Assembly (NCBI GenBank): GCA_964016885.1
Contig: OZ024740.1
Span: 131,068,001 to 131,132,000, forward strand
DNA: 64,000 bases
Reading direction: 5' to 3'
Source: Eledone cirrhosa
Taxonomy: Eukaryota
Shown: positions 1 to 58,497 of the stretch, piece by piece
How positions within the stretch are numbered: position 1 is the stretch's first letter
Layout of the letters: each line of letters begins with the position of its first letter
The notes under the pieces: model-generated
Told to the model about the DNA's origin: nothing
Databases searched by the model: none
Seen by the model: the letters and a program-made list of their open reading frames with translations, nothing else
Made by a program: the position numbers and the translations under genes

Positions 1-14
1 CAAAACCATGACCA

Positions 15-2657
15 AGAAACACCAGGATGGCGGCCGGCAGGGAATAGCCGTGTCTCTAAGGGAGGACTACCCCTCTAGTCTTGGTTGACACTCATCCTAG
101 GAGTGGTAACACGAAATGATTACCCCGTGGCTGTTAACGATAAAACGCAACAAAATAAATCCAATGTCAAATGATAAAATCTCATATCGGATCGGCCGTC
201 ACCCGGGTCAAATAGGACCGCGTCCGTCAGAGAGGAACCAGTCTGCGGTCGAAAAATCAGCTAATGGTTCAAACATTCCCATCAATTCGGAGCTGGAAAC
301 CTTCCATAACCGAAATACTCATATTGTTGGGCCTCTATGCTCACCACCAAGTAATCCAAAGAAAAAGAGAGAAAAATGGTCAAGGGAAGACAATAAAGGA
401 GTCTTGAGCTTTCTACACTGCCATGTACTACCCATCAAATCGATCGAATTACAGAACAGACGTATATCAACTGTAATAAGAAATATGTATAAAATAGAGA
501 CTATATTGACAGTAACATACAAACTAAGATACGGAGAAATAATGTTAAGAAAAAGGTACTAACTGATATAGAAATTGATCAGATCAAGCAATTAGCACAA
601 AGTCAGCGAAGGGAGTATGAAACATGTGTCAGTGACAACGAGGTAAATGTTTACACTCAGATCCCAGCGTTGGGGCGGAATCACTGACGAGAGAAAAAAT
701 TAAAGAGAGGATCGAAACATTGGTAGGAGTGCATGCTCAAGATGAATCACAAAATGAAAACAATGATATCGTAAATGATAACGAAATGAATGAGATGGAA
801 TTCGCCAACTTGTAAAATGAAATTATGATCGAATGGATGCAAATGGAAGAATCTGACATGGGTGAACGTGACACTCTCTCTAAGATCCAGAACGCCAAAC
901 AGAACCAAAGGATAATACACAAGACTAACATACCTCTCAAAAACATTATCATCATAAACAAACTAAACATTACTGATCGAAATCATATCTATTATGCATC
1001 TGATAAAGTCACCACTCACTTATGTGGAGTGAAAATGAAAAATCAAAGGAAAAATCAAAGGAATTCCCACAAGGAATTCCCACAAGAAATCGACACATTT
1101 TGCTTGATTGTTCCTATAAGCATGTCTGTTTCACTTGTTGTTTTATACTGTATTTTATTCTTAATTTTCTAAGTTTAGTTTGTTTAACAAACTACAAAGT
1201 AGGTGAACATGTTAAACAAACTAAACTTAGAAAATTAAGAATAGAATACAGTATAAAACAACAAGTGACACAGACATGCTTATAGGAACAATCAAGCAAA
1301 ATGTGTCGGCCAAAGCTGCTTTTATAAGGCGCTTTAAAAAACGATCTAGATTCTATTAGGACAATAATATGTTCAAAAACAACCAAAGAAACTTCAACAG
1401 AAAAATTGGTATGTCAACAATAACTGCTAAATCAATACCACCCAAGGAGGAAGTGCAAAAATTCTGGGAAAGGTTCTGGGCCGAAGAAATACTTCATAAT
1501 ATACATGCCCCATGGATAGACAGACAAATGAAGGATACAGCTCACCTTGATGAACAAACACGGAAACATATAAAAATATAACGGTTGAACATCTGCGTTT
1601 AACACTTAGAAAATCTAGCAAATGGAAATCCCCAGGGAAAGGAAAAACCCCAAATTTTAGGATAAGCACCTTCACAGAGTCTCATGAGCTGTTGCCCAAC
1701 TTTACAATGAAAGAGTTAAGGAGCCAGAAAAGATACCATCATGGCTAGTTAACGGCATTACATGCCTACTTCCGAAGAAAGATGAGACTAATAATCCACA
1801 AAATTACAGACCGATAACTTGCTTGACCACAATGTATAACATTTTAAAATTAGTCCTAACTGAATATACATATGAACACCTGATAACAAATGATATATTT
1901 CCCAATGAGCAGAAAGGGTGTAAACGAGGCTCATATGGATGTAAAGATCAGCTTTTGGTTAACAAAATGATACTGGTAGATTGTGATAATACACAAAAAA
2001 ATCTATCAATTGCTTGGATAGATTACAAAAAAGAATTCGATAGGTTGCTACACAGTTGCATTGAAAAGTGTTTAGAGATTTTCAAAATATCTTCCGTTGT
2101 CAGGAGGTTTTTTTCATTCAGTATGAAGACATGGAAAACGAAACTCCTTTTGAATAGTGAACAAAATCACTGGAAGCTGGAGAAGTTAATATTAATTGTA
2201 GAATCTTTCAGAGTGACTCTTTATCATACATTGTATTCCTCATCGCACTTATACTATTAAGTAAAATGTTCAATGAAACAAAACATAGATATAGAGTCTA
2301 TGATAAACCATTAATCACTTGTTATACATGGATGACCTGAAACTATTTGCAAAATATGATGAAGAATTGCAAGGGATATTATCCACTGTGGAGCAGTTCA
2401 GTGATGACATTAAAATGGAGTTTGGACTAGATAAATGCGCCAAAGCCATGTTCATCAGAGCAAAGCTGCTGAAAAGTTCAGACATTAATCTTGATCGTGG
2501 GAATGTGATATGAGACCTGATCAGTAGGAAACATACAATTATCTAGGTGTTTCTGAAGGAGACGGAATCAAGCACTCGACAATGAGGGACAGGATAACGA
2601 AGGAATGTTTTCGCAGAGTAAGAGCAATCTTAAGAGCGGAATTAAATGCAAGGAATA
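15..2657 (+). mobile_element. R4/Dong-like RLE non-LTR retrotransposon, family A, copy 1 (degenerate; 3' end deleted)
   Basis: ORF fragments with RT motifs (EQKGCKRGSYGCKDQLL, IAWIDYKK, LYMDDLKLFAK, MEFGLDKCAK); collinear with 8961-12857; fused directly to Tx1 sequence at ~2658. Confidence 0.9.
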
Positions 2658-5600
2658 GGACTCAGCTGATAGCCAGATCCGTCCTACACAGGACAGCAGG
2701 TGTTCGACATAAACCGAGTGCGTGCTGGACAGTTTTCGTCGCCATGCGCGCATCTCGGACATGCCCGCTGACGGCACCTCCATGCCTGTAGAGTTTATCT
2801 CGAAATGGCAAAGATCCTCGGTAGCACTGCCAGGCCAGGGATTTCTGAAAGTTGTCCATAGGCCCCGGGCCGAAAGTTCTTTCGAAGAGATTGGCTAGTT
2901 GATTTTCATCGACGCCTAGAGTTTCCCCAATTACGTCGTCGCTCTTCCCCTCAACTAATCCTCTATAGAAAGCCAAAGTGGAGTTTCCACCGATCACATT
3001 GCCCGATTTGTCGAGGGCTCTGCGCGCCTGAAGACATTCCAGTCTCTAAGGCACCCTCTCGGTCTTCGCTTGTCCCAGGACTGCAGCTCCGTCAAGGAGA
3101 CGAGCTGTGGAAACACGCGTCTAGTAAACGGCGATAACATCTGATCACCATCGAGGAAGAGGTGGAGATGTCGTAGGCTAAGCGCGTGTCTGCGCATCAT
3201 CAGCCAAGGCATGCCAGCCCTCCACGTAGCGGGTGTTGAAAGCAGATAGATCGCCTGACCATCGCAGCGCGTCCATTCCACAAAAAGCGAAAGAGCAAAC
3301 TTCCAGCGCAGTCAGGCGGGGCTTAGGACAAGGTACGACGGTCAGGAGGTAGTAGATGATGAACACGATGTACGCGTTAGCTACCTCCCGTTCTGTTTCC
3401 AGTTGCAGTAAACGTCCGCCAAGAGGCCTCCAAACAAGTCTGGCATCTGTACGGAAGTTCATAGGACAGACTACTAAACCAGGCGTTTTACCCTTTGTGC
3501 TGCCAGACATTGCCTCCCATATTTCAGCGGCTGTTATCGGCTTTTCGCAACACTCCGTCCTCAGTGGCCGAGAGCCGCGTCAGTCCGTCGAAGTAGACAC
3601 TTAAGTCCATCCCATAATCTGGCCCGCCGCTACCCCTGAACAGCTGAGCGAAGTGTCGCTGAAAAGCTTCACACATTTTCCCGGGATCGAGTAGCGTGCG
3701 CCCGTCGTGGTCCACCAAATACCTGATCCTGACTTTGTTGCCACGACGCGCCTCCGCCACTCGGGCCCATTGAACGGCTTTCGTCCCCTCGTGTCTGAGA
3801 GTACGCACCCTAGCTCTGACAACGCAGCCTTCGTGCTTTGCATTGAAGAATTGGTCAAGGGCCAATTTCTCCGCAATTACGTCTGTCGCGATGCCTTTGC
3901 TAAGCGCCTTGTCTAATTGTCTAACTAGTTATCACTCTGCTCTATTTTTCTCTTTTGCTAAAGCCTTACCCTAATGATCTCTATACTAATCGCTCTGTTC
4001 ATAGCAAACCACCACTTTTTGTTGGAGATGTCCCCCGTCAACGCCGCTTAAATAATTCGCTAATCCGGTCTCTGTAAGCTTTGCGCGCTGGTAAGGAGGC
4101 GTTTAGCTTCCAGTAGCCGGGGCCTCGTATATGAAGCCTATCTAAATCAAGCACACATATCACGAATGTGTGGTCCGTGTAGTTGACTATCTTGAATTGT
4201 GGACAGCCTATGCTAGACCTATCTATTTCCCTACAAAATACTCTATCTAGATATGATCTTGATGACCCTATGTGGTTTGTCCAAGCCCAAATTGGCTCAT
4301 TCGGGAAATCCAATCGGCACCTGTCAGACAGTTCAAAACGCCTGGCAGGTTGGTGAGGCCCTTGCACCCTCCTTCCCTATCCGCTAATCCCACACAGTCC
4401 TAGCTTCATCTAAGATCCCGTTCCATTCGTCGACTAACACAAAAGAGCGGAACGTTCCAAGAAAGGTCTCCAGACGCCGGAAGAAATCAGGTCGCCCTGC
4501 TCCTGTCGGGGCATTGACGGTGAATAGCCTTAGAGCTTGCCCGTCTCCGCTGGTCACGTCATGTACCACCAACTTACCTTCTGGGTCCAGGAAGATGGCC
4601 CGTATGGCGAGATCCAAACCTCTCCGAAAAAGCACAGCAACCCCTCACACGATCCAGGACGGCTGGGAGATGCGTACACATCGTAGCCGCCGAAGATCGG
4701 TGCGATGGCCCGTGTTTCGGAGATTCTGGTCTCGCTGATGGCCACTACATCTATGTTTAGTGACCTGAGGTCGTTGAGCAGGTGGCCCTGCTTTCATGAC
4801 GACCCCAAGCGACGCGCATTTATGCTGCCTAATCTGAGTGAGGTCATGTTGAAATGGAGTGGAAAAGATTTGAAAGACCACTTACCTCGCTTCTCGTAGA
4901 AGAGGGATGGTTTATGCATCCTTTTCTCTGCATTGTGGCCTCCTCCGGAAGAATGTCCTTTTAAATCCTCCTGGAGAGTGCTTGTCGGATGTCTCCGATG
5001 TCTTTGGGGAATTTTTGTTTGTGTCGTGTACGTTTTCTGTGTGATGCGAGTGATTTGTATGTGTGGGGGTGGTGTGAATCTTTGGGGTGTTGGGTAGTCT
5101 TTTTCTGTGATGCTGGTGTTGTGTTGGATGTAGTGTAATAATTGGTTGTTGTTCAAATTTAATGCTGTGTAGTGTGGATCGTTTTGGTTGATTTTTTTTG
5201 TTTGCGTTTGTTGTGGGTTTGTTTCTCTTTCGCTTTTTGGTGACGTTTGTGGTGTTGGTGGTGCTGGGGTTAATGATGATGATGGTTTGTGGTGATGGGA
5301 TTGGTGATGCTGGTGTGGATGGTGGAATAGATGTCCTAACTTTTTTGTTTGAATTTTTATTTGTTTCCCTCTGTATTTTATTTTTGGAGGGGAAGGAAGA
5401 GGATTTTTCTTTTTTGGTTTCTTTTACTTTTTTTCTTTTTTCCTGATGCCGTTTCCCTCTCCTCGTCCTCACAATATGTCTCCAGTTACGATAGGTCGGG
5501 GAGTGGAAAATCCTCCAGAAGCGTTGGTTTTGGTTGTGGCATGGTGGATGGTGTAGGCGCTGGTGCTAGTTCTGGCCCGTTGGGTGCTGGTGATGTTGGT

Positions 5601-6968
5601 TTCGCTATTGTTGCTGGGGTTGTTGCTGCTACAGTCGTTGCTACAATTTCTGCTGCTGGTGGTGTTGATGGTTGAGTCACTGGAGGGGGTAAGAAAGGTG
5701 GCCTCAACCATTTAGCCTGAGGGCAGAAAGCCCTTAGGTGGGTTCCTTCACCACAAACGACACACCTAGGCCTTCTGCCCTCGGCGATTACGGTGAGATG
5801 TATTCCATCAGTGAGGTCTATTACCGCTGGGATCTCCTCATTGCTTTTTTGGTCCGCTTGGATCAGGTGCTCCATCCCAGATCCGGACCAGCTCTCCTGC
5901 TTTTCTTTCGCTATTTCGATTATCTTGGTGTTGGCCTCGATGCCGGCTAGGAGGGCAGCCTTTAGCCAGGGAATTTAAATGGCCGGTGGAACGTGGGTCA
6001 CCCTGATCTTCACGAGTCCTTGGCCACAATAGCTTGGGACGAGTGTGAAGTCGTCATTTCTTAATTGGGCAATAGAGTGTTCTTTGGCCTCCTGTGGTGT
6101 TCCAAAGAACACATCCACGGTTCCATATTTCTGCCCACGTCTGATGTGGGGTTTTTTTGCCCACACATGTCCCAAAGCTTTTTGGATTTGGGACTCGGAT
6201 GTCCTTGCCACTCGGCGCTATTTTATGTTAATCGTCCGATAAGACACGGTGCATAGGCGCCGATGCTTCATTTTATTAGATAGAGCAGAATGGGGAGGTT
6301 GACCCTGTACCCATCTTTCTTTACCATTCACCTGGATAGCTTCGCACTTTTGTGCTGCTCTGGCAAAAGACAGGGTGGTTTTCTTATTCTCATTGTTGTT
6401 GCTGCTGTTGTTGTTATCGTTATTTTTGTTATTGTTACTTTTAGTTTCAGTTGTGGTGGTGGTGTCGTCAGTGGTATTAGGTGTGGAAGAGTCCATTATG
6501 GGTGAATCCATTTCGATGTCACGAGATAATATTTTTTTTCTTTTGTTTCTGTTGTCGCTGTGGTGGTGGTGGTGAGGGTGACTGCTTCATCACTTGCAGT
6601 CATTGGTAATGGCGGGAAATAAATGTCTGCATGAGACAAATTTAAATTATTGCTACTGCTTATATTTTAGTGTTGGCAAACGTAGTAATATTTACAATGG
6701 TCGTGTCGGTGTGAGGTGTTAGTTTGTGAGGAAGGTGTGGCTGTGAGTCGTCCATGATTCTTTAAACAGATTTTTTTTTTTGATAACTATAAAAGTTTAA
6801 ATGTTGGGCTCAAGGCCCCAATCTTTTTGATTGTCCTTTTCCGAAAGCAAATTTTGTGACCTTATAAATAGTTAACAACACAAATTTTCCATAAATGGCA
6901 ATTTTAAACAATCGAAAAGTACAAATCTTTGCCGAGCTCACGATGATACGTTTCCTAGGTATGTCGCC
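2658..6968 (-). mobile_element. Tx1/L1-clade non-LTR retrotransposon, type T1, 5'-complete; RT core and 3' end deleted
   Basis: ORF1 fragments with CVVCGEGTHLRAFC zinc knuckle (5486-5875); APE fragments (INARRL, SYLDRVF, PGYWKLNAS); ~0.9 kb RT deletion at ~3385; 5' end matches the one at 18769. Confidence 0.9.
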
Positions 6969-6976
6969 AATACTAT

Positions 6977-7023
<47 letters not shown>

Positions 7024-7067
7024 ATAATAATAATAATAATAATAATAATAGTACTAATAATAATAAT
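6969..7067 (+). repeat. Compound (TAC)n/(TAA)n microsatellite spacer
   Basis: Direct reading of sequence between two Tx1 copies. Confidence 0.97.
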
Positions 7068-7952
7068 GATTTCTTTATTAACCACAAGGGTTTACATAAA
7101 GTAGACATTAAGGACAGTGCAGGACAATACAGGACGGTACAAATGGGCATTTCTGCGTGTAAAAAAAAAAAACAGAGGATGTAACAAAAAATAACAATGA
7201 AAAATTCCCCAATAGGGGGGGATAGTTCGGAGGGACATTTGTGGAGAAAGCCCAGTAAAAGGCCACAATGACCCTGACCACCAAGGCAAGTGCCCTATCC
7301 CAGTTTTCCACCTTTAATTTACAGATATATACTCAGTGTAGGCCCATTCACTCGGGCCATTCTTGCTTCTCTCACCCATCTTTCAACAAAATGCTGGGAA
7401 GAGAGCACTTCCCTCTCTATTCTGATTTTCCTTTTCAAATGAAATTTGAAAAAGTCAATCAGAGCATCACCGAAGAGGTAAGTGCTGGTCTTCAGCCCTT
7501 TCAAACGTGTCCACCATACTATCTCTTTCGCCATGGCCACCAGACAGATAAAAACTGCCTGCCCTTCCCGGCTAAAGAAGGAGGGCGGGGCAATCCTCAC
7601 GATGGACTCAGATGATAGCCGGATCCGTCCTAAACGCGACAGCAGGTGTTCGACATAAACCCACAAGTCAGCAATTTTCGGACACTGGACGAGTGCGTGC
7701 AGGACGGTTTCGTCGCCCTGCGCGCATCTCGGACATGCCATGCAGACGGCACCTCCATGCCTGTAGAGTTTATCCCGAACTGGCAAGGCTCCTCGGTAGC
7801 ACTGCCACGCCAGAGATTTCTGGAAGTTGTCCATAGGCCCTGGCCCGAAAGTTCTTCCGAAGATATTGGCTAGTTGATTTTCGTCGACGCCTAGAATTTC
7901 CCCAAGTACGTCGTCGCTCTTCCCCTCCACTAATCCTCTATAGAACGCCGAG
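7068..7952 (-). mobile_element. Tx1-like element, 5'-truncated (ORF2 C-terminus + 3'UTR)
   Basis: ORF 7319-7960 with CPRCAQGDETVLHALVQC zinc finger; 3'UTR with AATAAA before (ATT)n. Confidence 0.92.
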
Positions 7953-8889
7953 TTAACCACAAGAGTTTACATAAAGTAGACATTAAGGACAGTACAGTAA
8001 AATTCAGGACGGTACAAATGGGCATCTCTGCGTTTAAAAAAAACAAGAAACAGAGGATGTAATAATAGAACAATGAAAACATTCCCCAATAGGAGGGAGA
8101 CTTCCGAGGGAAATTCGTGGATAAAGCCCATTAAAAAGCCACAGTGACCCTGACCACCAGGGCAAGTGCCCTCTCCCAGTTTTCCACCTTTAATTTAGAG
8201 AGACATACTTAGAGTAGGCCCATTCACTCGGGCCCTTCTTGCCTCTAGCACCCATCTTTCAACAAAATACTGGGAAGAGAGCACTTCCCTTTCTACCCTG
8301 ATTTTCCTTTTCAAATGAAATTTGAAAAAGTTAATCAGGGCATCACCGAATAGGTAAGTTCTCGTCTTCAGCCCTTTCAAACGTGTCCACCATACTATCT
8401 CTTTCGCCATAGCCACCAGACAGATAAAAATTGCCTGCCTTTCCCGGGACAATCCTCACGATGGACTCAGCTGATAGCTGGATCCGTCCCACACGCGACA
8501 GCAGGTGTTCGACATAAACCCACAAGTCACCAATGCTCGGACACTGGACAAGTGCGTGCAGGACGGTTTCGTCGCCCTGCGCGCATCTCGAACATGCCCG
8601 GCTGACGGCACCTCCATGCCTGTAGAGTTTATCCCGAACTGGCAAAACTCCTCGGTAGCACTGCCAGGCCAGGGATTTCTCGAAGTTGCCCATAGGCTCC
8701 GGCCCAAAAGTTCCTCCGAAGAGATTGGCTACTTGATTTTCGTCGACGCTTAGAGTTTCCCCAAGTACGTCGTCGCTCTTCCCCTCCACTAATCCTCTAT
8801 GGAACGCCAAGATGGAGTTTCCACCTATCACATTGCCCGATTGGTCGAGGGTTGTGAGCGCCTGAAGACATTCCAGTCTCCAGGTCCAC
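7953..8889 (-). mobile_element. Tx1-like element, 5'-truncated, abutting the previous copy
   Basis: Second copy of 3'UTR + ORF2 C-terminus (ORFs 8195-8452, 8343-8831); small deletion near 8446. Confidence 0.9.
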
Positions 8890-8950
<61 letters not shown>

Positions 8951-8964
8951 AAGAAGAAGAAGAA
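8890..8964 (+). repeat. Compound (TAA)n(GAA)n microsatellite
   Basis: Direct reading. Confidence 0.97.
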
Positions 8965-11900
8965 ATACCGGGATAGCGGCCGGCGGGGAATAGCCGTGTC
9001 TCTAGGGAAGGACGACACCTCTAGTCTTGGTTGACACTCGTCCTAGAAGTGGTAACACGAAATGTAAAGTAAATGTCTAATGATAAAATCTCATACCGGA
9101 TCGGCCGTCACCCGGGTCAAAAAGGGCCGTGTCCCTCAGAGAGGAACCAGACTGGGGTCTAAAAATCAGCTAATCGTTCAAACCTTCCCATCACTTCGGA
9201 GCTGGAGACGTCCCATAACCGGAATACTCCTACTGTTGGCCCTCCATGCTCACCACCAAGAAATCCAAAGAAAAAGAGAGAAAACGATTCAAGTGAAGAT
9301 AATAAAGAAGTCCTTGAGGCTTTCTACACTGCCATGTACTACCCATCAAATACATCGAATACAGAACAGACATATATCAACTGGAAAAAGAAACATCCCG
9401 AAAACCGAGGCCATATTGACAGTAACAAACTAGCCAATATACGAAGAAATATTGTTAAAAAAAAGTTACCAACTGATATAGAAATTGATCAGATCAAACT
9501 ATTAGCACAAAGTCAGCTAAGGGAAAATGAAACATGTGTCAGTGAAAACGAGGTAAACTGTAACACGTCGAATCCCATGGTTGGGGCGGAATCAGTGACA
9601 ACAGAACGAATTAAAGAAAGGATCGAAAAGGTGGAGGCAGTGTATGCTCAAGATGAAACTGAAAATGAAAACAATGAGATAATACATGATAAAGAAATGA
9701 GTGAGAATGAACTTGCCAACTTGCAATTGAAATTATGATGGAATGGATGAAAATGAAATAATCTGACATGGGGGAACGAGACACCCTCTCTAAGATCCGG
9801 GAACTCCAAACAGAACCAAATGATAATACACAAGACTAACATAATTCTCAAAAACATTATCATCACTAACAAACTAAATATTTCTGATTTAAATCATCAC
9901 TATTATGCATCGTCTAAAGTCACCAGTCACTTATGTGGAGTGAAAATGAAAAAAACAAAGAAATTCCCACAAAAAATCTACTTGGCAAGAGAACATCAAT
10001 CGCCACATAAACCTTCTCCGATTTGAAAGAAATGTTAACAATCTACAAAATAGGTGAACATGTTAAACAAACTAAACTTAGAAAATTTAAAAGAAAATAC
10101 AGTATAAAATCAACAAGTGACATAGACATGCTGACAGAAATAATCAAGCAAAAAGTGTCGGCCAAAGCTGCTCGTATAAGGAGCTTTAAAAAACGATCTA
10201 GATTCTATAAGGACAATAATATGTTCAAAAACAACCAAAGAAACTTCTACATAAAAATTAGCAAGTCAACAATTGGTAAATCAATACCACCCAAGGAGGA
10301 AGTGCAAGAATTCTGGGAAAAGATCTGGGCGGAAGAAAAAGTTCATAATATACATGCCCCATGGATAGACAGACAAATGAAAGATTCAGTTAACCTTGAG
10401 GGACAAAGGTGGGAAAATATAACAGTTGAACAGTTGCGTTTGGCTCTTAGAAAAAACAGCAAATGGAAATCCCCAGGAAAAGACAAAATACCAAATTTGT
10501 GGATAAATGCCTTCACAGAGTCTCGTGAGCTGTTAGACCAGCTTTCCAATGAAATAGTTAAGGAGCCAGAAAAGATACCATCATAGTGAACGGCGTTACA
10601 TTCCTACTTCCGAAGAATAATGAGACAAACAATCCCAAAAATTACGGACCAATAACTTGCTTGACGACAATGTGAAAAATGTTAACATCAGTCCTAACTG
10701 AATATACATATGTCCACCTGATAACAAATGATATATTTCCCAATGAGCAGAAAGGTGTACACGAGGCTCATATAGCTGTAGAAATCAGCTTTTGGTTAAC
10801 AAAATGATACTGGAAGATTGACATAATAGACACAAAAATCTATCAATTGCTTGGATAGATTATAAAAAAGCATTCGATAGTTTGCCACACAGTTGGATTG
10901 AAAAATGTTTAGTGATTTTCAAAATATCTCTCGTTGTCAGGAGGTTCCTGTCATTTAGTATGAAGACGTGGAAAACGACACTCCTTTTGAATAGTGAAAC
11001 AAAATCACTGGAAGCTGAGAAGTTTATATTAACTGTGGAATTTTTCAGAGTGACTCTTTACACCGATTTTATTCTGCATCGCACTTATAACATTAAGTAA
11101 AATGCTCAATGAAACAAAACGTGGATATAAAGTCTATGACAAAACCATTAATCATTTGTTCTACATGGATGACATGAAAATATTTTCTAAAGAATGATGA
11201 ACAATTGCAAGGGCTATTATCCACTGTGAAGCAGTTCAGTGATGACATTAAAATGGAGTTTTGACTAGATAAATGCGCCAAAGCAACGTTCACCAGAGGA
11301 GGGCTGCTGAAAAGTTCAGACATTAATCTTGACGAGGGGAATGTGATCAGAGAACTTGATCAAGAGGAATCTTACAAATATCTAGGTGTTTGTGAAGGAG
11401 ACGGAATCAAGCACTCGACAATGAGGGAAAGGATAAGGAAGAAATTTTACCGCAGAATAAAAGCAATCTTAAAGGGAATTGAATGCAAGGAATATGATTG
11501 TTGCCATAAATACGCTTGTCATACCAGTAGTAACCTACAGTTACAATGTCATCAACTGGTCACACACTAAGATCCGTAGGCTCGATACAAAAATTAGAAG
11601 ATTCTTAACCATGCCCTGAATGCATCACCCTAAGGCAGATACAGGTAGAATATATCTCCCTAGGAAAGAAGAAGGACGTGGGTTATTCCAGTTAGATATT
11701 GCGTTGAAAACTGCAACAATTGGATTATCTACATATCTAAGGGAATCACATGATTGGATGATCAAACTCGTTTTGAAAAATGAAAGCATCAAAAGATCAT
11801 ACTCCATTACAAAAGATGCACAAAGGTACAGTAATGGACTACACATTTCAGAAGTCCCATTTACTCTTGAAATGGAAAACACAGAAAAAGCAATGCAGCT

Positions 11901-12857: not shown

Positions 12858-12882
12858 TAATAATAATAATAATAATAATAAT
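12858..12882 (+). repeat. (TAA)n at tail-to-tail Dong/Tx1 junction
   Basis: Direct reading. Confidence 0.97.
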
Positions 12883-13131
12883 GATTTATTTATTAACCAC
12901 AAGGATTTACATAAAGTAGACATTAAGGACAGTGCAGGACAATACAGGACGGTACAAATGGGCATTTCTGCGTGTAAAAAACAAAAACAGAAGATGTTAC
13001 AAAAAATAACAATGAAAAATTCCCCAATAGGGGGAGACTTCAGAGGGACATTTGTGGAGAAAGCCCAGTAAAAGGCCACAATGACCATGACCACCAAGAC
13101 AAGTACCCTCTCCCAGTTTTCCATCTTTTAT

Positions 13132-18769: not shown

Positions 18770-18793
18770 AATAATAATAATAATAATAATAAT
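18770..18793 (+). repeat. (TAA)n spacer between tandem Tx1 elements
   Basis: Direct reading. Confidence 0.97.
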
Positions 18794-37120: not shown

Positions 37121-37134
37121 ATAATTGTAATAAT

Positions 37135-40890: not shown

Positions 40891-40891
40891 A

Positions 40892-40927
<36 letters not shown>
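40891..40927 (+). repeat. (TAA)n at tail-to-tail Dong/Tx1 junction
   Basis: Direct reading. Confidence 0.97.
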
Positions 40928-40928
<1 letters not shown>

Positions 40929-46687: not shown

Positions 46688-46901
46688 GTTGTTTTTTGTT
46701 TAAAATGAATATTGGGTACAAAACCCCAATAACTGGTTATTTAATCCCGAAGGGCCAAATAACGGACAGAAAGACCCCTCTCACGAGGAGGAGGGTGTCT
46801 TTATCAACAATTTGGTTCAAGTTTTAAACAACTTACAATTGTTTTAACGGTTAAAAATTACTATACCTTACAGAGCCGAGCCCCCGTCAACCATGGCATT
46901 C

Positions 46902-46937
<36 letters not shown>
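46902..46937 (+). repeat. (TAA)n spacer
   Basis: Direct reading. Confidence 0.97.
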
Positions 46938-47560
46938 CACCACGCTGTAGACGAACACAAATAAACAAACAGACACACAGGCATAAAAAAAACCCCAAAA
47001 TGAATAAGCATAAGTTTCATTGTAATGTAGTGTTCGAATGTCTGACTTAGTTTTTCCCCTCTCTTCTCTGCCCGTCCACTTGTTTCTCTCTTCATTCTTA
47101 TTTTCTTTAGGTTTTTTTTTGTTTTTTGTTTTTGTTTTTCTCTGTTTGTTTTTCTCGTTTTTTGTTGCTGTTGCTGCTGTGCTGTTTTGGTTTTGATGTT
47201 TGTTTTTTCTTTTTTCTTTTGAGTCTATCTATATATTTTGATCCTCTTTTTTAGTAGGAATTCTATAATGTGGTGGCAGCAACTAGCAGAAGCAATGGGA
47301 GACAGCAGCGGCGGTAGCGATACTGAGACAGTGGTGGTGGTGATGTCGATACCGAGGCAGTGGTGGTGGTGATGTGATCGTATTACTGTAGTGATGGTGT
47401 TGTAGCGGTGGTAGCAATGAAGGAGTGGTGGCGGCGGTGATGGTGGGATAGTGGTAGTCATGATGGCCCTTATCTGGCTGTTGTGTTTAGTGTACACAGA
47501 GAGGTGATGGGGTAGGTGGTGTATCTAGTTTCTGGTGTTGGTGAGATTGGTGTTGTTTGG
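46938..47560 (-). repeat. Diverged inverted copy of ~51580-52120
   Basis: GAATAAGCATAAGTTTCATTGTAATGTA and GCGGCGGTAGCGATA blocks are reverse complements of sequence at ~52040-52067 and ~51802-51816. Confidence 0.85.
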
Positions 47561-48091
47561 CTGTTCTATATAGTTTAGACAGAGGAGGGGGGGGGGGGGT
47601 TCTTCTTCCATTTATAGCCATTTTCTGTTTTGAATATACAACGTACAATACAAAGTTGAATATTTGAATATTTGAGTCTTATAACATATATTTTGAGTCC
47701 GAATTGTTGGGGGGCTCAAGCCGGATGCTTTACGTAGCATTTGTACTAGGAGTTGTTAATTCACAAATGATTTAAATATGTTAAAAATTCAAAAATTACG
47801 GGAGCGATTTCATGACCTTCTACCACCTCGTGCGTCTTATTCCCTTATAGCGTGGTAATAATGCCACACAAGTGCCAAATGGAACGGCGCAACCACCGGA
47901 CACGGTGAATCCACAGATGGCTATGTAACCATACATTCGCCAATCCTCGATAAGAGTGTTTAAATATCGAACCTAAACAGTTCGAATAACGGTGAAATGG
48001 AGACTAGAACGTCATGTGACAGACTCTCACCCAACAGGTGCTCCCTGGCTCAGCAGCAGGAACCTGACTGTCAACCAAGTACTGCTGGTGT

Positions 48092-50140
48092 TTGAGGAAG
48101 AAGAAGAAGGAAAGTGAGCTGGAACTGGAGGAACTGAGCAGAGAGAATAGCTTGGAGATGGAGGGTGTAGTATGCCAGACAAACGAGCCAGTGGGAAATG
48201 AAGGTGTAGAGGTCGAGAGAACGGAGGAACCACCCGAAGCAGACAATGATCTGAACACTGAAATAAATAATACCTGGAACAGAGATACGGCCGCTGAGGA
48301 GATGAATGCTGACGGGCTAGGACAAGATTCGGTTGACATCCTAAATTTAGTGGTAGAAAAATTGAACAATGATAGTGGGAGACCTATGAACCTAAGATTT
48401 GTAGACAGGAAAAAGTTAAAAGAAACAACAACTAAGGTAAACAAAGTCATCCCATACCTTGAGGCGAGGAGCCTTCACCAGTGCAACAATATCCTCAAAG
48501 CAACAGCAAATACGGTGAGGAAACTACTTGGTATAAAAGCGAGAGGAAACAACAGACAAGAAAGAGCAGAGCCTTGGTGGAAGAAACGACTGAGTGGTCA
48601 AATCAGGGAAATGAGAAATGACATTGGAAAGCTTGAGTCACTACTGAATGGGACATTAAAAAACATAGGCACTAAAAATAGACTGGAAATAAAGTACAAA
48701 ACTAGGAGGAATAAGCTAAATATTATCATAGAGGAACTGAAGCAACGCATTGTAGCAAAGAGTGCAAAAATCAGGCGATACGAGAACAGAGTCAGCCAGT
48801 ATAAACAGAACCGCATGTTCGACAACAACCAGAAGATGCTCTTTGGACAGCTTGAGGGGAAAGAAAGAGGCAACGACTTGATCCCTGAGGCGGAACAAAC
48901 TAAAACATTCTGGAGAGGAATATGGGAACAGGATGTTAGACATAATGACCAGGCAGGGTGGATTGAGACAGTACAGAGGGAGATCGGTGAGCAGGCACAC
49001 CAACAAACTGATTTGAGTATCACAGTTGAAACTCCTAAGGGGCAGGCCAAAAAACTAACCAACTGGAAATCACCAGGCCCAGATGGTGTGCAGGGGTATT
49101 GGATTAAAAATATAACATCCCTCCACTCGAAACTGACAACCATGTTCAATGACTGCTTGATGTCAGGTGAGGTACCAGAGTGGTTGACAAAAGGTACCAC
49201 AGTTCTGATAATGAAAGACCAAATCAAGGGTAATGATGTTACCAACTATATACCTATCACATGTCTGTCTGTAATGTGGAAACTGTTGACGATCATTGTG
49301 TCTGAGGAAATCTACCATCACCTCCACACAAACAACTTGTTACCGCACGAACAGAAAGGATGCCGAAAGAAGTCACGGGGTACAAAGGACCAGTTACTTA
49401 TTGATAAGATGGTAATGGGGAATTGCAGGAGGAGACACACTGATATTGCCATGGGATGGATAGACTACAGAAAGGAATTTGACATGGTGCCTCATTCTTG
49501 GATCACCAAAAGCCTGGAGATCTTCAAGGTGGCAGATAAAATCAGACAGTTGTTGGGCAAGGGTATGAGGTCCTGGGAAAGAGAGTTGACATCAACTGGA
49601 GAATCCTTGGGAAGCGTGAAGATCAAGAGAGGTATCTTCCAGGGAGATAGCCTGTCCCCTCTGTTGTTTGTCCTTGCCCTGATGCCCCTGACCAGTGTAC
49701 TGCGAAAAGTGAGAGAAGGATACGGGTTGGGAAAGGGAGGGCTTACCATCAATCACCTCCTCTTCATGGACGATCTTAAGCTCTTCGGGAAGAGTGAGAA
49801 GGAGTTGGATGTGCTTGTTGACACTGTCCGTATTTTCAGCAGTGATATATGTATGCAGTTTGGTATTAGTAAGTGTGGAGTCATTGTGATGAGGAGGGGT
49901 AGGTTGAGCAGAAGTAACGGGATCCAGATACCAACAGGTGAGATGATAAAGGAAATTGACTCTGAGGAAGGATACAAGTATTTGGGCGTTCTGGAGGCTG
50001 ATGGCATAAAGAACAAAAAAATGAAGGAATTGTTAAGAACTGAATACATTCGGAGAGTAAGGAGCGTATTGAAGTCACATCTGAACAGCAGAAATGCCAT
50101 AAGTGCAGTAAATTCTCGAGCTGTGTCTATTATTAGGTAG
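48092..50140 (+). pseudogene. R4/Dong-like reverse transcriptase (682 aa open segment)
   Basis: KSPGPDG, EQKGCRK..GTKDQLL, GIFQGDSLSP, LFMDD, YKYLG; premature TAG at 50138. Confidence 0.93.
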
Positions 50141-50541
50141 AGTGCGGGAATTCTGAGATGGTTGAACAAAAAGAAATGGATAGGAAGACTAGGGAGCTAT
50201 TAACCATCTACAACATGTTCCACAAGAGGAGTGATATCGATAGACTCTACCTAAGGAGATCTGAGGGTGGAAGAGGTCTTATCAGCATAGAGGACTGTGT
50301 TCAGATGGAGAAAAACCACCTACACAAATACGTGACTGATGGTAAGGAGCCAATTATCAGAAATGTACAGAAGGAGGGGACAATAGGCCAGGGGATGTCC
50401 AAGGAGGATATAACATCAAGGATAAAGAGCAGCCTCCAGGAAAAATCCCTTCATAGTACCTTCTTTGAGAAAACTGAATTTAGAGATCCACAGACATTTA
50501 ACTGGTTGAGAAGAGGAGACCTTTAAAAGGCTACAGAAGGA

Positions 50542-51207
50542 ATGTTAATGGCTGCGCAGGAGCAGGCCCTCAAAACGAAGTGGTTGAAACACCATATTTA
50601 CAAGGAGGAGGCTAGCCCACTGTGCAGGATCTGTGGAGAGAGAGAGGAGACTGTGGCTCACATTGTATCCGAGAGTAAACACCTAGCCCAGACCCACTAT
50701 AAGGGCTGGAGACATGATGTGATGGGCAGGGTGATCCACTGGCACCTGTGCAAAGTAAACAATTTACCACATTATGAGAAATGGTATGAGAATAAGCCAA
50801 AGGCGGTGATGGAGAACGACCAGGTGAAGGTGCTGTGGGATTTTAGGATACAGACGGACAAGAAACTGGAACACAATAGACCTGACCTGATGGTTGTGGA
50901 CAAAGAAAAAAGATCGTGTCTGATTGTGGATGTGGCCTGCCCATTCGACACGAGAGTGCAAGAGAATGAGAGGGAGACAATTAACCGATACCAGGACTTA
51001 AAGTGGGAGGTAAAAAGGATTTGGAACTGCCATGAAGTCAAAGTGATCCCGATTGTCATAGGCGCACTGGGGACTATCTCCAAAAGTTTCCAGGGATGGT
51101 TAAAGAAAATCGGCCCCTTCAAGCTTTTTGGAACGCTTCAAAAGGCATGCTTGCTGGGAATAGCAAGAACCCTCCGATATGTCTTGAATATCTCAGGCTG
51201 CAGGTAG
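50542..51207 (+). pseudogene. CCHC finger + restriction-like endonuclease domain
   Basis: CRICGEREETVAHIVSES, RHD, NRPDLMVVD..IVDVACP, PIVIGALG. Confidence 0.9.
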
Positions 51208-51269
51208 TGGCTTGGTATTCATTCCAACGGACTTTCCAGTTAACTAACATCAATGACTGAGATTCAAGG

Positions 51270-51282
51270 AATAATAACAATG

Positions 51283-51314
<32 letters not shown>
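51270..51314 (+). repeat. (TAA)n spacer, imperfect
   Basis: Direct reading. Confidence 0.95.
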
Positions 51315-54300
51315 CCAAATTTGACGGGAGCGATTGCATAACGATATATATCCAGCATGTGCGTTTTCTTCCCTTTCTTTATTTTTACTTATTTGTTAAT
51401 GTTTACTTATTTAAAACAACTGTGATAGAATAATAATTATTACAAATGAAATATAAGATTACAGTTTTAACACTCAGCAAGCGACAACGTATCACATTAC
51501 TGCATAGGGCCCGAATATTTAATATTTAATTTTGGATCAGAAATGTTATAGTCGAGAAAGAGAAAAATGGCAAATGATTTCACCACCAACACCACCACCG
51601 CCACCATCACCACTACCACGCCAAACACTCTAGTCAAGTTACCTCAAATTATATTTCTACTTCAACTTCAACACCATCTCTACAGTACTACGATCACATC
51701 ATCACCACCACTCACTTATTACCGCTACCGCCGCTTTTCTCTCCCACAACCTCCTGCTAAGTACTACTAGCACATCACCACCACCACCACTACTGCCTCA
51801 TTATCGCTACCGCCGCTATGCTCTCCCACTACCTCCTGCTAAGAGATGCATCGTAGTGTCCCCACTAAAAGAGGAAGGCATCAAAAGATATAAATAGACT
51901 GATTTGATGACCCGGTCAAAAAAAAAAAAAGAATCAAAAGAGCACAGCAGCAACGAAAAACGTAAAGAAAATAAAAAAGAAAAGAAAAACAAACAGACGG
52001 ACAGACAAGCAAGAAAACTATGTCAGAGATTCAAATATTACATTACAATGAAACTTATGCTTATTCTTTTGGATTTTTGCCTATTTGTTTGTTTGTTTAT
52101 TTATGTTCGTCTATAGCGTGATAGTGCCACGCTAAAATCACCGGAGGTGATTAAATCACCGGTGGTTAAGTATCCATACATTCACCAATCCTCGATAAGA
52201 ATGTTTAAATATCGAAACAAAACAGTTCGAGTAATGGTGAAGTGGAGACTGGAATGTCTTGTGACAGACTCTCACCCAGCAGGTACTCCCTGGCTCAGCA
52301 GCAGGGACCTGGCTGTCGACCAAATACTGCTGGTGTCGGAGGAAGAAGAAGAAGGAAAGGGACATGAACCAACTGGACGAAAGTATTGAATAGAAATGTT
52401 ATGCAATGTTACCTGAAGAGTAACCCCAGGGAAAACATCTATAGGAAACGGATGCATAACATCTGGAACGAGATTGGTCTATTTAAATTAGATGAACAAA
52501 AATTGGCCGGGCAGGCTGGGGAATCAGAACTAATGGGTGGATAAGCGAGCTGGAACTGGAGGAACTGAACAGAGAGATTAGGTTGGAAATGGAGAGTGGA
52601 GTATGACAGGCAAACGAGGCAGTGGGAAATGAAGGTGAAGAGGTTGAGAGAACGGAGAAACCATCCGAAGCAGACAATGATCTGAATGCTGAAATAAATA
52701 AGAACAGGAACAAAGATACGGCCACTGAGGAGATGAATGCTGACGGGATAGGACAAGATTTGGTTGTTATCCGAAACTTAGTGGTAGATGAAAAGAAACA
52801 ATGATAGTGGGAAACCTCTGAACCTAAGATTTGTAGACAGGAAACAGTTAAAAGAAACAACAGCTAAGGTAAACACAGTCATCCCATACCTTGAGGCGAG
52901 GAGCATTCACCAGTGCAACAATATCCTCAAAGCAACAGCAAATACGGTGAGGAAACTACTTGGTATAAAAGCGAGATGAAACAGCAAACAAGAAAGATCA
53001 AAACCTTGATGTAAGAAACGACTGAATGGTCAAATCAGGGAAATGAGAAATGACATTGGAAAGCTTGAGTCCGTACTGAATGGGAGACTAAACAATATAA
53101 ACACTAAAAATAGACTGGAAATAAAGTACAAAACTAGGAGGAAAAAGCTAAATAGTATCATAGAGGAACTGAAGCAACGCATTGTAGCAAAGAGTGCAAC
53201 AATTAGTCGATACGAGAGCAGCGTCAGTCAGTGTAGACAGAACCACATGTTTGAGAACAACCAGAAGATGCTGTTTGGACAGCTTGAAGGGAAAGAAAGA
53301 GGCAACGACTTGATCCCTGAGGCAGAACAAACTAAAACATTCTGGAGAGGAATATGAGAGCAGGATGTTAAACATAATGACCATGCAGTGTGGAGTGAGA
53401 CAGTACAAAAGGAGATTAGTGAACAGGCACTCCAACAAACTGATTTGAGTATCACAGTTGAAACTCTTAAGGGGCAGGCCAAAAAACTAGCCAACTGGAA
53501 ATCACCAGGCCCAGATGGTGTGCAAGGGTATTGGATTACAAATATAACATCCCTCCACTCGAAACTGACAACCATGTTCAATGACTGCTTGATGTCTGGT
53601 GATGTACCATAGTGGTTGACAAAAGGTGCCACAGTTCAGGTAATGAAAGACCAAATCAAGGGTAATGATGTTACCAACTATAGACCTATCACATGTCTGT
53701 CCGTAATGTGGAACCTGTTGACAAGCATTATGTCTGAAGAAATCTAAAATCACCTAAACACAAACAACTTGTTACCGACGAACAGAAAGGATGCCGAAAG
53801 AAGTCCCGTGCTACAAAGGACCAGTTACTTATTGATCAAATGATAATGAGGAATTGCAAGAGGAGACACACTGGTCTTGCCATGGGCTGGATAGACTACA
53901 AAAAGGCATTTGACATGGTGCCTCATTCTTGGATCACCAAAAGCCTAGAGATCTTCAAATTGGCAGATAACATCAGACAGTTGTTTAGCAAAAAATATGA
54001 AGTCCTGGAAAACAGAGTTAACATCGGGCTGGAGAATCCTTGGAAGGCGTGAGGATCAAGAGAGGTATCTTCCAGGGAGATAGTTTGTCCCCTCTGTTGT
54101 TTGTCCTTGCCCTGATCCCCCTGGCCATTATACAGCGAAAGGTGAGAGCAGGATACACGTTGGGAAAGGGAGAGCTTGCCATCAATCACCTCTTCGTCAT
54201 GGAAAGATATTAAGCTCTTCGGGAAGAGTGAGAGGGAGTTGGATGTACTTGTTGACACTCCGTATTTTCAGCAGTGATATATGTATGCAATTTGGTATTA

Positions 54301-55712
54301 GTTAGTGAGGAGTCCTTGTGATGAAGAGGAGATAAATTGAGCAGAAGCAACGAAATCCAGGTACCAACAGGTGAGGTGATAAAGGAAATTGATGCTGAAC
54401 AGGGATACATATATTTAGCTGTTCTGGAGGCTGATGATATCAAGAACAAATATATGAAGGAATTGATAAGATCTGAATACATTCGGAGAGTAAGGAGTGT
54501 ACTAAAATCACATCTGAACAGTAGGAATGCCATAAGTGCAGTACATTCCCGCGCTGTGTCTAATATTAGGTACAGTGCGGGAATTCTGATATGGAATGTT
54601 GCTGTACAAAAAGAAATGGATAGGAATACTAGGAAGCTATTGACTATCTACAACATGTTCCACAAGAGGAGTGATGTCGATAGACTCTACTTAAGGAGAT
54701 CTGAAGGCGGAAGAGGTTTTATCAGCATAGAGGACTGTGTTCAGATGGAGAAAAACAACCTACACATATACGTGACTCATAGTAGAGAGCCATTGCACAG
54801 AATTGTACTGAAGCAGATGAAAATAGACCAGGGGATGTCCAAGTAGGAAATAACAACAAGGAGAAAGAGCAACCTTCATGAAATATCCCTTCATAATGCC
54901 TTCTTTGAAAAGACTGAATATAGAGATTCACATACATGGAACTGGTTGAAAAGAGGAGACCTTAAAAAGGCTACAGAAAGAATGCTAATGGCTGCGCAGG
55001 AGCAGGCCCTCAAAACGAAGTGGTTGAAACATCATATTTACAAGGAGGAAGCTAGCCCACTGTGCAGGATCTGTGGAGAGAGAGAGGAGACTGTGGCTCA
55101 GATTCTATCCGAGTGTAAACACCTAGCCCATACTCACTATAAAGGCTGGAGACATGATGTGATGAGCACAGTGATCCACTGGCACCTATGCAAAGTAAAC
55201 AATTTACCACATTCTGAGAAGTGGTATGAGCATAAGCCAGAGTCGGCGATAGAAAACGATCAGGTGAAGGTGCTGTGGGATTTAAGGATACAGACGGACA
55301 ATAAACTGGAACACAATAGACCTTACCTGGTGGTTTTGGACAAAGAAAGAAGATCGTGCCTGATTGTGGATGTGGCCTGCCCATTCGACACGAGAGTGCA
55401 AGAGAAGGAGAGGGAGAAAATTAACCGATACCATGACTTAAAGTGGGAGGTAAAAAGGATTTCGGACAGCCATGAAGTCAAAGTGATCCCGATTGTCAAA
55501 GGCGCACTAGGTACTATCTCAAAAAGTTTCCAGGGATAGTTAAAGAAAATTGGCCCTGACCCGCTTTTTGAAACACTTCAAAAAGCATGCTTGCTGGGAA
55601 CAGCAAGAACCCTCCGATACGTCCTGAATATCTGAGGCTGCAGGTAGTGGCTTGATATTCATTTCAACAAACTTTCAAGTTAACTAACATCAATGACTGA
55701 GACTCAAAGAAC
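51315..55712 (+). mobile_element. R4/Dong-like element family B, copy 2, full-length, many stops/frameshifts
   Basis: Collinear with 47790-51269; retains an N-terminal segment (52357-52543) missing from copy 1; TAA tail. Confidence 0.92.
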
Positions 55713-55742
55713 AATAATAATAATAATGATAATAATAATAAT
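55713..55742 (+). repeat. (TAA)n at tail-to-tail Dong/Tx1 junction
   Basis: Direct reading. Confidence 0.95.
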
Positions 55743-57184
55743 GCTTTCTGTATTAACCACAATTGTTTACACAAAGTAGACATTAATGACAGTACAGGAC
55801 AATACAGGACGGTACAAATGGGTATTTCTGCGTGTAAAAAAAACCCAAGTACAGAGGAAGTAATAACAGAACAATGAAAAATTCCCCAATAGGGGGGATA
55901 CTTCCGAGGGCCATCGTAGAGAAAGCCCATTAAAAAAAAGCCACGGTGACACTGACCACCAGGGCAAGTGACCCCTCCCAGTTTTCCACCCTTAATTTAC
56001 AGACACATACTCAGGCTATGTCCATTCACTCGGACCATTCCTGCCTCTCTCACCCATCTTTTAACAAAATACTGGTAAGAGAGCACCTTCCTCTCTACCC
56101 TGATTTTCCCTTTCAAATGAAATTTGAAAAAGTTAATCAGGGCATCACCGAAGAGGTAAGTGCTCGTCTTCAGCCCTGTCTATCTCTTTCCATACTATCT
56201 ATGTTGCCATGGCCTCCAGACAGAAAAAGACTGCCTGCCCTTCCCGGCTAAAGGAAGAGGGCAGGGCGATCCTCACGATGGAATCAGCTGATAATCGGAA
56301 CCGTTTTACACGCGCCACAGCAGGTGTTCGACATAAACCCACAAGTCAGCAATGCTCGGACACTGGATGAGTGTATGCAGGACGGTTTCGTCGCCCTGCG
56401 CGCATCTCGGACATGTCCGGCTGACGGCATCTCCATGCCTGTAGAGTTTATCCCGAACTGGAAAAGCTCCTCGGTAGCACTGCCAGGCCAGGGATTTCTG
56501 GAAGTTGTCTATTAGCCCCGGCCCGAAAGTTCTTCCAAAGAGATTGGCTAGTTGAATTTCGTCGACGCCTAGATTTTCACCAAGTACGTTGTAGCTATTC
56601 CCCTCCACTAATCCTCTATAGAACGCCAAATTGGAGATTCCACCGATCACATTGCCCGATTGGTCGAGGGCTGTGAGTGCCTGAAGACATTCCAGTCTAC
56701 AAGTGCTCCCATTCGGTCTTCACTTGACCCAGGACTGCAGCTCCGTCAAGGAGATGAGCTGAGGAAAGACGCGTCTTGCAAACGGCGACCACACCTGATC
56801 ACCGTAGAGGAAGGGGTGGAGATGTCGTAGCCTGAGCGCATGTCTGCCCTTCCTCAGCAACGGCATGCCCGGCCCTCCACGTAGCGGGTGTTGACAGCAG
56901 ATGGACCGCCTGACCATTGGAGCCCGTCCCTTCCACAAAAAGCGAAAGAGCAAACGCTCCAGTGCTGTAAGGCGTGGCCTACGACAAGGCGCGACGGTCA
57001 GTCTGTAGTAGATGACGGACGCGATGGACGTGTTAGCCACCTCCGCTAGACCTTTCAGTGATAGCTTCCTCTCGGCCCATTTCTGGGTGAGAGAAGCCAA
57101 CCTGCTCGTCACCTCGTCCCAGTTTTTGTCCGCCTGGAGGTCCTGGCCGTACCAGACCCCTAGCAATTTAACCGGTCCGTCGGT
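55743..57184 (-). mobile_element. Tx1-like element (T1/T3-type ORF2), 5'-truncated
   Basis: ORFs 56720-57250 and 56306-56650 match the ORF2 C-terminal half; (TAA)n on both sides. Confidence 0.92.
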
Positions 57185-57203
57185 ATAATAATAATAATAA
57201 TAA

Positions 57204-57890
57204 GGGGTTGTCCAAGGAGGAAGATCAACCTTCATGAAAAATCCCTTCATAGTACCTCTTTAAGAAAACTGATATTAGAGTTACACAGATATGAAACTGG
57301 TTAAAAAGAGGAGACCTTAAAATAAGCTACAGAAGGTATGCTAATGGCTGCACAAGAGCAGGCCCTCAGAACGATATGGGTGAAAAACCATATTGTCAAG
57401 GAGGGGGCTAGCTCCCTGTATAGGATATGTTGAGAGAGAGAGAGGAAGCTGTGGCTCACATTGTATCCGAGTGTAAACACCTAGCCCAGACTCACTATAA
57501 AGACTAGAAACATGATGCGATAGGCAGGGTGATCCACTGGCATCCATTCAAGGTAAACAATTTACCACATTCGGAGAAGTGGTACGAGCATAAGCCAGAG
57601 TCCGTGATAGAAAACGATCACGTGAAAGTGCTATGGAATTTTAGGATACAAACGGACAAGAAATTAGAACACAATAGGCCTGCCCTGGTCGTTTTGGACA
57701 AGGAAAAAAGATCGTGCCTGATTGTAGATGTAGCATGCCCATTTGACACGAGAGTGCAAGAAAAGGATAGGGAGAAAATTAACCGATACCAGGACTTGAA
57801 GTGGGAGTAAAAAACGATTTGGAACTGCCATGATATTCATTTCAACAAACGTTCCAGTTAAATAACATCAATGACTGCGACTCAAAGAAA
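57204..57890 (+). mobile_element. R4/Dong-like family B, short 5'-truncated copy with internal deletion
   Basis: RLE fragment 57529-57810; ~180 bp missing at ~57835; family B 3'UTR; preceded by (TAA)n at 57185-57203. Confidence 0.9.
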
Positions 57891-58497
57891 AATCATAATA
57901 ATAATTTTTTTCGACATTTGGCATAAGGTCAGCAATTTTATGGACGTGAGAGTTCGCCATTTCATTCCATATTTCATCGGATATCGGTTTTTTTGCAACA
58001 TCACCTCACACGCTGAGAGCCGTGGTAGGCTATTTAGTTTAAGGTCGATCCTTCGATCTGACTCTTCATCGCTCCAGGATATTTGAGGGCAGTATCGCTG
58101 AAATATCGCGCACATCTGTTTGGGATGAGTATTTTTATTTTAATGGGTATCTTAAAGGGGAGAAAAGTAAATGATTTCTCTGCAAAAGATTTAATATACT
58201 CAGCTAACCATTACATTCATTTTCATCACCACCACCAACCTGACCCACAAGTAGAAATTAACTGAACAATTGTATGTAATTCACTCCAGCTACTAGCACA
58301 ATACAAATGAAATGCTATTAACAAACTGCTATTTCCTTAATTTATATTCCATCTATCCCATTGAATGCATCACCCCACTGTTTTCTCAATTCAAAAAATT
58401 CAATTTGTAATATCTTATTCACCCCACTAATTGATATATACACACCTAAATAACACATTTATTTCCCATTCATATCATTTACCATATCATATACCCT

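Follow-up and report, generated by a model that had tools for sequence, protein, structure and literature searches.

Dong elements of the R4 clade are known to target (TAA)n, including in most insects, molluscs and cnidarians (PMC7998251, PMC3812793, PMC1635306, PMC3774820), with TAA upstream on the sense strand as read from a primer in PMC3774820, and the Dong of silkworm carries a 5' hepatitis delta virus (HDV)-like ribozyme (PMC3774820). In the Tx1 clade, families residing on microsatellites include Kibi in (TC)n, Koshi in (TTC)n and crocodilian elements in (TTCC)n or (TTTC)n; moreover, Tx1-Mar mobilises the short interspersed nuclear element (SINE) SINEU with a weaker target preference, and tandem copies sandwich the target duplication (PMC4494074). 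In the telomeres of Bombyx, TRAS and SART insert in opposite orientations into a common short repeat, where they build arrays (PMC10088271), and Keno (Tx1, with an apurinic/apyrimidinic endonuclease, APE) and Utopia (with a restriction-like endonuclease, RLE) converged on U2 small nuclear RNA (snRNA) genes with identical 3' flanks (PMC4640811). In plants, stem-loop tails are common to L1-clade long interspersed nuclear elements (LINEs) and SINEs (PMC3472496). For Octopus vulgaris, recent activity of Dong-R4 and L1-Tx1 and an abundance of Dong-R4, L1-Tx1 and SINE families were reported (PMC13282606), and the available parts of two octopus repeat studies do not mention a TAA target (PMC13282606, PMC9115989). 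Here we analysed a 64,000-bp stretch of the 3.0-Gb genome of Eledone cirrhosa (contig OZ024740.1, positions 131,068,001-131,132,000; "the window"), in which Dong-like and Tx1-like LINEs are stacked on opposite strands of one (TAA)n repeat, and compared it with copies of the same families elsewhere in the genome.

Sixteen LINE copies make up 99.2% of positions 1-57,905 of the window. They were called from self-comparison, Pfam and tblastn, and are named D for RLE-type (Dong-like) and T for APE-type (Tx1-like) copies; from left to right their order is D1 T1 T2 T3 D2 T4 T5 T6 D3 T7 D4 T8 D5 D6 T9 D7. The strand split is complete, with all seven D copies on + and all nine T copies on -, just as the original prediction had claimed, and a perfect split by class and strand among 16 copies has a chance probability of 3e-5. 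All runs of (TAA)>=3 in the window (16/16) read TAA on +, the sole (TTA)3 lying inside T4, and the tracts between copies are 9-96 bp long. A (TAA)n tract is present at 12 of the 15 internal junctions; the tract-less ones, D1|T1 (2660), T2|T3 (7952) and T7|D4 (~35,117-35,136), look like deletions, one of them having a short shared motif, and no tract was found at the window's left edge for copy D1. The earlier claim that every spacer tract reads TAA on + stands for the runs themselves, but three junctions are tract-less and two spacers also hold (TAC)15 or (GAA)14. That no element sits inside the open reading frame (ORF) of another is true of the LINEs; a SINE fragment and a 650-bp repeat lie in the 5' untranslated region (UTR) of D4.

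The same polarity was found at other loci across the genome, where 29 loci were read for each element end with queries from which the tract had been excluded. Tx1 3' ends were followed by sense TTA at 27/29 loci and Tx1 5' ends preceded by it at 29/29, and sense TAA came after the 3' end of Dong family A at 29/29 and of family B at 27/29; among 32 5'-truncated Dong copies, 28 had TAA at the truncation point, and at 8 of 11 Dong family C loci a tract lay <=80 bp from the 5' end. The final, de-duplicated tally covered 246 stretches (1.25 Mb) and left out the 29 loci of a tract-containing query, the window loci, three local duplicates and ten nested loci: 283/288 Dong ends were at sense TAA, and 129/132 Tx1 ends as well as 82/82 SINE ends were at sense TTA. 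Among the eight exceptions, seven were at tracts that flip from TAA to TTA and one was at an inverted segment. The mid-tract flips (L066, L094, L131, L233 and L235) have the form of a small inversion within the repeat. Flanks and orientation of these families are not random in the 1.25-Mb sample, and the predicted sharing of one target with fixed, opposite polarity extends well beyond the window.

The copies in the stack are of staggered ages. They differ by 4-28%, each with its own deletions, and none of the 16 has an unbroken ORF, a 1,141-codon open frame being found in a Dong B copy elsewhere in the genome. Measured against the closest copies in the sample, identity is lowest for T7 (82%) and highest for T8 (99%), and older copies lie at the two edges of the stack; since few of their relatives were sampled, identity is likely underestimated for T5, T7 and D4. 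The Dong families A, B and C have almost no nucleotide match to one another, and the Tx1 copies fall into three groups (72-84% identity), two distinct 5' ends occurring within one of them, so that the earlier count of at least seven families was a fair one. Since the copies differ in age and truncation, serial insertion fits them and duplication does not. Thus the 16 copies very probably entered (TAA)n by serial insertion, Dong with TAA and Tx1 with TTA on the sense strand.

A SINE of 187 bp whose head resembles a tRNA (its A and B boxes were assigned by eye against the consensus) has its 3' end in common with Tx1: a short hairpin with the loop CTTGT, then AGAAA, then ATTAT. The hairpin stems (ACC/GGT and GCC/GGC in Tx1; GGC/GCC in the SINE) differ by both-sided changes between Tx1 families and the SINE, and the inner three pairs are intact at 221 of 253 ends. 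SINE target duplications of 8-19 bp were found in 16/29 copies, 13 of the 16 beginning with ATTAT. The registers of Tx1 match those of the SINE: 95 Tx1 3' junctions end at ATTATT without poly(A), and 53 5' junctions come after ATTATTATT. The two elements hence have what marks a SINE/LINE pair with stringent 3' recognition, namely a stem-loop tail with both-sided changes and the same target signature, and are alike in terminal register and orientation. Judging by these termini, the SINE is likely mobilised by the enzymes of Tx1, at a less strict target preference (ATTAT). An additional Tx1 family outside the window (L084, L110, L122, L126 and L143) has its own 3' end, the same hairpin loop and a TTA flank.

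Target-primed reverse transcription is an established mechanism, and if both clades use it, the geometry of the insertions would imply priming on opposite strands. As the SINE duplications start with ATTAT, the Tx1 priming end is likely on the TAA strand: the Tx1 APE would nick this strand at T/A and prime from the resulting ...ATAAT-3' end, and the Dong RLE would prime from the TTA strand. The RNA 3' end (UUA or UAA repeats) would pair with the primer and probably help to set the direction. Going by the 8-19 bp duplications, an insertion would be expected to add 3-6 repeat units and to leave two usable tracts; long tracts would then collect beside old insertions and stacks would grow, with deletions trimming them later and the SINE riding the Tx1 machinery.

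Stacks are frequent in the genome; the window is no special locus but one large instance of a rule that holds genome-wide. In a fixed-interval sample of 40 stretches of 10 kb (400 kb), the families cover ~5% (Tx1-like 1.9%, Dong 1.5%, SINE 1.8%), one of the 40 stretches is itself a stack, and seven of the nine tracts of >=6 units touch a LINE. Moreover, of ten 20-kb regions with a Tx1 5' end in the middle, eight hold at least two tract-joined LINEs, and three are filled over 17.7-19.4 kb. A second stack of ~25 kb with the same polarity is located ~18 kb upstream of the window (131,024,500-131,050,000; L311, L094-L092). Of the self-renewing landing pad envisaged in the original prediction, tract renewal and serial insertion have held, but the idea of a special locus was overstated.

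Could the tracts instead be 3' tails brought by the elements, which piled up passively in A/T-rich, low-recombination DNA and owe their polarity to the tail sequence? Dong B 3' ends do carry an element-borne degenerate CAA/TAA tail common to copies, Tx1 ends are without poly(A), and only three of six 5'-truncated Tx1 copies have a tract where they break off, two of these being one duplicated locus. However, tracts are also found at Tx1 5' ends (29/29), at random Dong truncation points (28/32) and near the 5' ends of most of the Dong C loci above, and the SINE duplications begin at a fixed motif. This account is therefore improbable and largely refuted; pairing of tails may assist targeting, yet it is no substitute for it. 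An origin of the array through duplication, whether segmental or tandem, or through the joint mobilisation of pre-formed element pairs would be in keeping with the local duplicates seen elsewhere (three locus pairs: L046/L059, L079/L080 and L225/L226) and with two full-length look-alikes of the T6|D3 junction (89% and 85%). Yet the window contains no repeating unit, and divergence and deletions differ from copy to copy; for the T9|D7 junction no second full match was present among 40 scored out of 938 candidates, and the T6|D3 look-alikes break ~10 nt from the break of D3, at an A-rich spot, and have Tx1 partners with other deletions. Such an origin, which the original prediction had named as grounds for abandoning its reading, thus has very little to recommend it and is the least probable of the alternatives.

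The length of the array might also be due to an assembly mis-join through TAA tracts, given that no long read spans the array, Logan contigs break at repeats and restriction site-associated DNA (RAD) reads do not span it. Against this, tracts of 9-96 bp between copies 4-28% divergent can be spanned by reads, three junctions are without any tract, a low-depth 701-bp contig (which may come from the assembly's own sample) runs from the end of D7 through the last tract into the unique flank, and the pattern recurs on many contigs, so that we give a mis-join only a slim chance. Besides the missing spanning reads and the truncated Tx1 copies, several points weigh against serial, target-directed insertion: i) searches gave the 40 best-scoring copies, which favours young ones; ii) the tally counts element ends and not independent events; iii) six of the seven LINE-adjacent long tracts in the 400-kb sample belong to one stack; iv) in minimum-energy folding the hairpin appears with T8, whereas the SINE reference does not form it; v) most SINE copies are in ordinary DNA, only 1/29 having >=3 TTA units at its 3' end; and vi) the nick position and the RNA-primer pairing, both deduced from sequence, are not separable on that basis. 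On balance, serial insertion of two LINE clades into opposite strands of (TAA)n remains the best explanation of the stack.

The class of the two enzymes was assigned from domains and homologues. Among the Tx1-like copies, Pfam matches were Exo_endo_phos (E 1e-14, T5), RVT_1 (E 2e-28, T8) and zf-RVT (E 8e-9, T8), and the APE aligns to L1 ORF2 with GDxN, YLD and DH motifs; the T copies thus have the N-terminal APE, reverse transcriptase (RT) and C-terminal zinc finger of the Tx1 clade. A weak zf-CCHC match in ORF1 reached the cut-off in T5 only (E 4e-4). A piece of T8 ORF2 scored 255 bits to Xenopus Tx1, 155 to human L1 ORF2 and 56-78 to R2, and so lies nearer to Xenopus Tx1L than to the L1 of mammals. 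In an RT tree that used 32 of 240 fetched proteins and held no L1, Kibi, Koshi or Keno rows, the group of T8 and T6 (100/99) also took in 11 unnamed proteins and stood beside one with two Tx1-named rows; a metagenome scan (query P0001) found no relative. Logan contigs under a second species label (X4) run along Tx1 copies.

The Dong-like copies have RVT_1, together with CCHC and RPD..D..K/RY motifs in D2, D3, D5 and D6 (degenerate in D4 and D7), and their best solved relatives are R2 proteins. They display the single ORF with RT, CCHC and PD-(D/E)xK endonuclease, and without APE, that characterises R4/Dong, and no named Dong, R4, Rex6 or HERO references were among the 120 listed homologues or in the Atlas. 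The N-terminus of R4/Dong was described as without zinc fingers and with a diverged SANT/Myb-like domain detected with HHpred (PMC7998251). Here no zinc finger was seen and a W..E/N...Y...W...LA..R block is common to D2, D4, D6 and homologues, but Pfam gave no SANT match at E<=5. An Rfam scan returned no ribozyme family and only sub-threshold microRNA-like matches; a strict home-made descriptor of the HDV-like ribozyme, run without a positive control and with family C outside its scope, matched 0/58 family A/B 5' regions.

Table 1. Features of the window, with positions counted from its first nucleotide.
Feature	Positions	Strand	Description
D1, Dong family A	1..2660	+	RVT_1; left end inside 5' UTR, ~217 bp before window; 3' third deleted; tract-less fusion to T1
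T1, Tx1-like	2661..6970	-	5' end kept; 3' end and internal piece deleted
T1-T2 spacer	6971..7066	+	(TAC)15, then (TAA)9 and (TAA)4
T2, Tx1-like 3' fragment	7067..7952	-	zf-RVT; meets T3 without tract
T3, Tx1-like 3' fragment	7953..8889	-	5' truncation falls at a tract
T3-D2 spacer	8890..8964	+	(TAA)11(GAA)14
D2, Dong family A	8965..12857	+	RT, CCHC, RPD..D..K endonuclease motif; ~1 kb of 5' UTR gone
T4, Tx1-like full-length	12882..18771	-	APE, RT region, zf-RVT; left (TAA)8, right (TAA)7
T5, Tx1-like full-length, second family	18793..24763	-	79% to T4; ORF1 zinc knuckle, APE, RT
T6, Tx1-like	24779..30042	-	T8-type 5' end; internal deletions; (TAA)5 each side
D3, Dong family B, 5'-truncated	30058..31324	+	CCHC and RLE motif; degenerate tract on to 31,347
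T7, Tx1-like, third family	31348..35117	-	72-82% to other copies; 5' part lost at tract-less D4 junction
D4, Dong family C	35136..40870	+	~2.2 kb 5' UTR; degenerate ORF
Abundant 650-bp repeat, unrelated	36039..36690	.	Insert within 5' UTR of D4
SINE fragment, 5'-truncated	37044..37118	-	In D4 5' UTR; 16-bp target duplication; empty site in paralogous Dong copy
T8, Tx1-like full-length, youngest copy	40927..46903	-	98.6% to sampled relatives; (TAA)11 each side
D5, Dong family B	46937..51270	+	690-aa open frame with RT; CCHC, RPD..D..RY motif; 5' UTR 46,937-47,845 inverted
D6, Dong family B with 5' UTR	51314..55714	+	First 60-70 bp inverted
T9, Tx1-like, 5'-truncated	55742..57185	-	(TAA)6 at truncated end
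D7, Dong family B, 5'-truncated	57204..57895	+	Stack closed by (TAA)3 at 57,896-57,904
tRNA-type SINE, full copy	62029..62215	-	Outside stack; reference for likely Tx1 partner

Parts of two + copies lie on - as inverted pieces, namely the 5' UTR of D5 (~900 bp) and the start of D6 (51314-51380). In both of these Dong B copies the inversion of the 5' end reaches the tract, and the D5 junction also has a short duplication, a pattern to be expected from twin priming; adjacent opposite-strand Dong pairs numbered only two among all other loci. The 0.8-0.9-kb pieces before D5/D6 were considered as a DNA transposon with terminal inverted repeats, which was rejected as they are Dong 5' UTRs, and an apparent break in the stack at 35.1-37.1 kb turned out to be the 5' UTR of D4. 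In D1, an inverted duplication of ~100 bp at 1091-1310 forms a long hairpin. The 650-bp repeat is in ACAT/TA-type repeats at 36039-36690 and in (CATA)n at locus L256, and is possibly another microsatellite-seeking element.

The 5' ends of both classes vary. Comparison of T4 with T6/T8 and T5 revealed Tx1 ORF2 that is 92-93% alike yet joined to differing 5' ends, which suggests 5' replacement in Tx1, as in L1. Dong A and B have the start of the 5' UTR in common although their ORFs do not align as DNA, and the D5-type 5' UTR is A-like in its first half and B-like in its second (loci for these comparisons: L133, L175, L094:7492-9044 and 46937-47845 of the window); 5' UTR exchange between Dong A and B is likely. 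As in family B, the 5' ends of Dong C (L317-L326) start with TAGG directly behind the tract, and these ends could form a nested stem. Furthermore, (GAA)n runs are located at Dong 5' junctions beside the GAA-rich 5' end (8923-8964 in the window; L100, L131, L171, L179 and L183), and Dong 5' junctions are a possible source of new microsatellites.

A further consequence is conceivable though rather unlikely: mixed arrays would self-assemble, with head-to-head Tx1|Dong pairs sharing promoters and tail-to-tail pairs reading through, and the resulting strand-ordered small-RNA loci would silence both clades. One hint is that the tract has a LINE immediately on its other side at 21/29 Tx1 5' ends versus 11/28 3' ends (Fisher p 0.017). 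For the antisense read-through and small-RNA source raised by the original prediction, the evidence is geometric: the 139 LINE-LINE junctions comprised 65 Dong-Dong, 34 Tx1-Dong (head-to-head), 28 Dong-Tx1 (tail-to-tail) and 12 Tx1-Tx1. If true, this would be a route to PIWI-interacting RNA (piRNA)-cluster-like loci that is written by target choice alone.

More broadly, the Tx1 clade gains (TTA)n as a target, and with two enzymes on one 3-bp repeat, the roles of endonuclease specificity versus RNA-primer pairing in setting site and direction become testable, the SINE duplications yielding the nick register without biochemistry. In a genome of 3 Gb, the rule also affects how repeats cluster and bears on annotation, assembly and insertion calling. 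Our literature search, for which Repbase, Dfam and most subscription papers were beyond reach, found no TAA/TTA-specific Tx1 family and no mixed Dong/Tx1 stacks.

Compared with known systems, the Dong-like copies resemble Dong of Bombyx mori, DongAg, DongBg and ostracod Dong1/2 in their single ORF with RT, CCHC and RLE and in the (TAA)n target. They differ in that three divergent families occur together and interleaved with an APE clade, families A and B having the beginning of a 0.8-1.0 kb 5' UTR in common. An HDV-like ribozyme, known from silkworm Dong, was not detected here by Rfam or by the descriptor, which had no positive control, on family A/B 5' regions. The Tx1-like copies are like Kibi, Koshi, crocodilian Tx1 and Tx1-Mar/SINEU in being microsatellite-specific, in having a linked SINE with weaker preference and in forming tandem copies. 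Their sense-strand (TTA)n is, in contrast, a target that the main text of PMC4494074 does not name (its figures or supplements may list more), and unlike SINEU the partner here is a tRNA-type SINE with a common 3' hairpin, and the junction lacks poly(A). TRAS and SART are both of the R1 clade, with one enzyme type, and located at telomeres, whereas here APE and RLE clades share an interstitial trinucleotide repeat genome-wide; Keno and Utopia insert at one site of a low-copy gene and in one direction, whereas the two clades described here face opposite ways in a renewable target. Thus Dong on (TAA)n is already known, as are, separately, opposite-strand sharing (TRAS/SART) and APE-RLE convergence (Keno/Utopia); what appears to be new is a Tx1 lineage on the opposite strand of the Dong target, its likely SINE partner and the mixed stacks that result.

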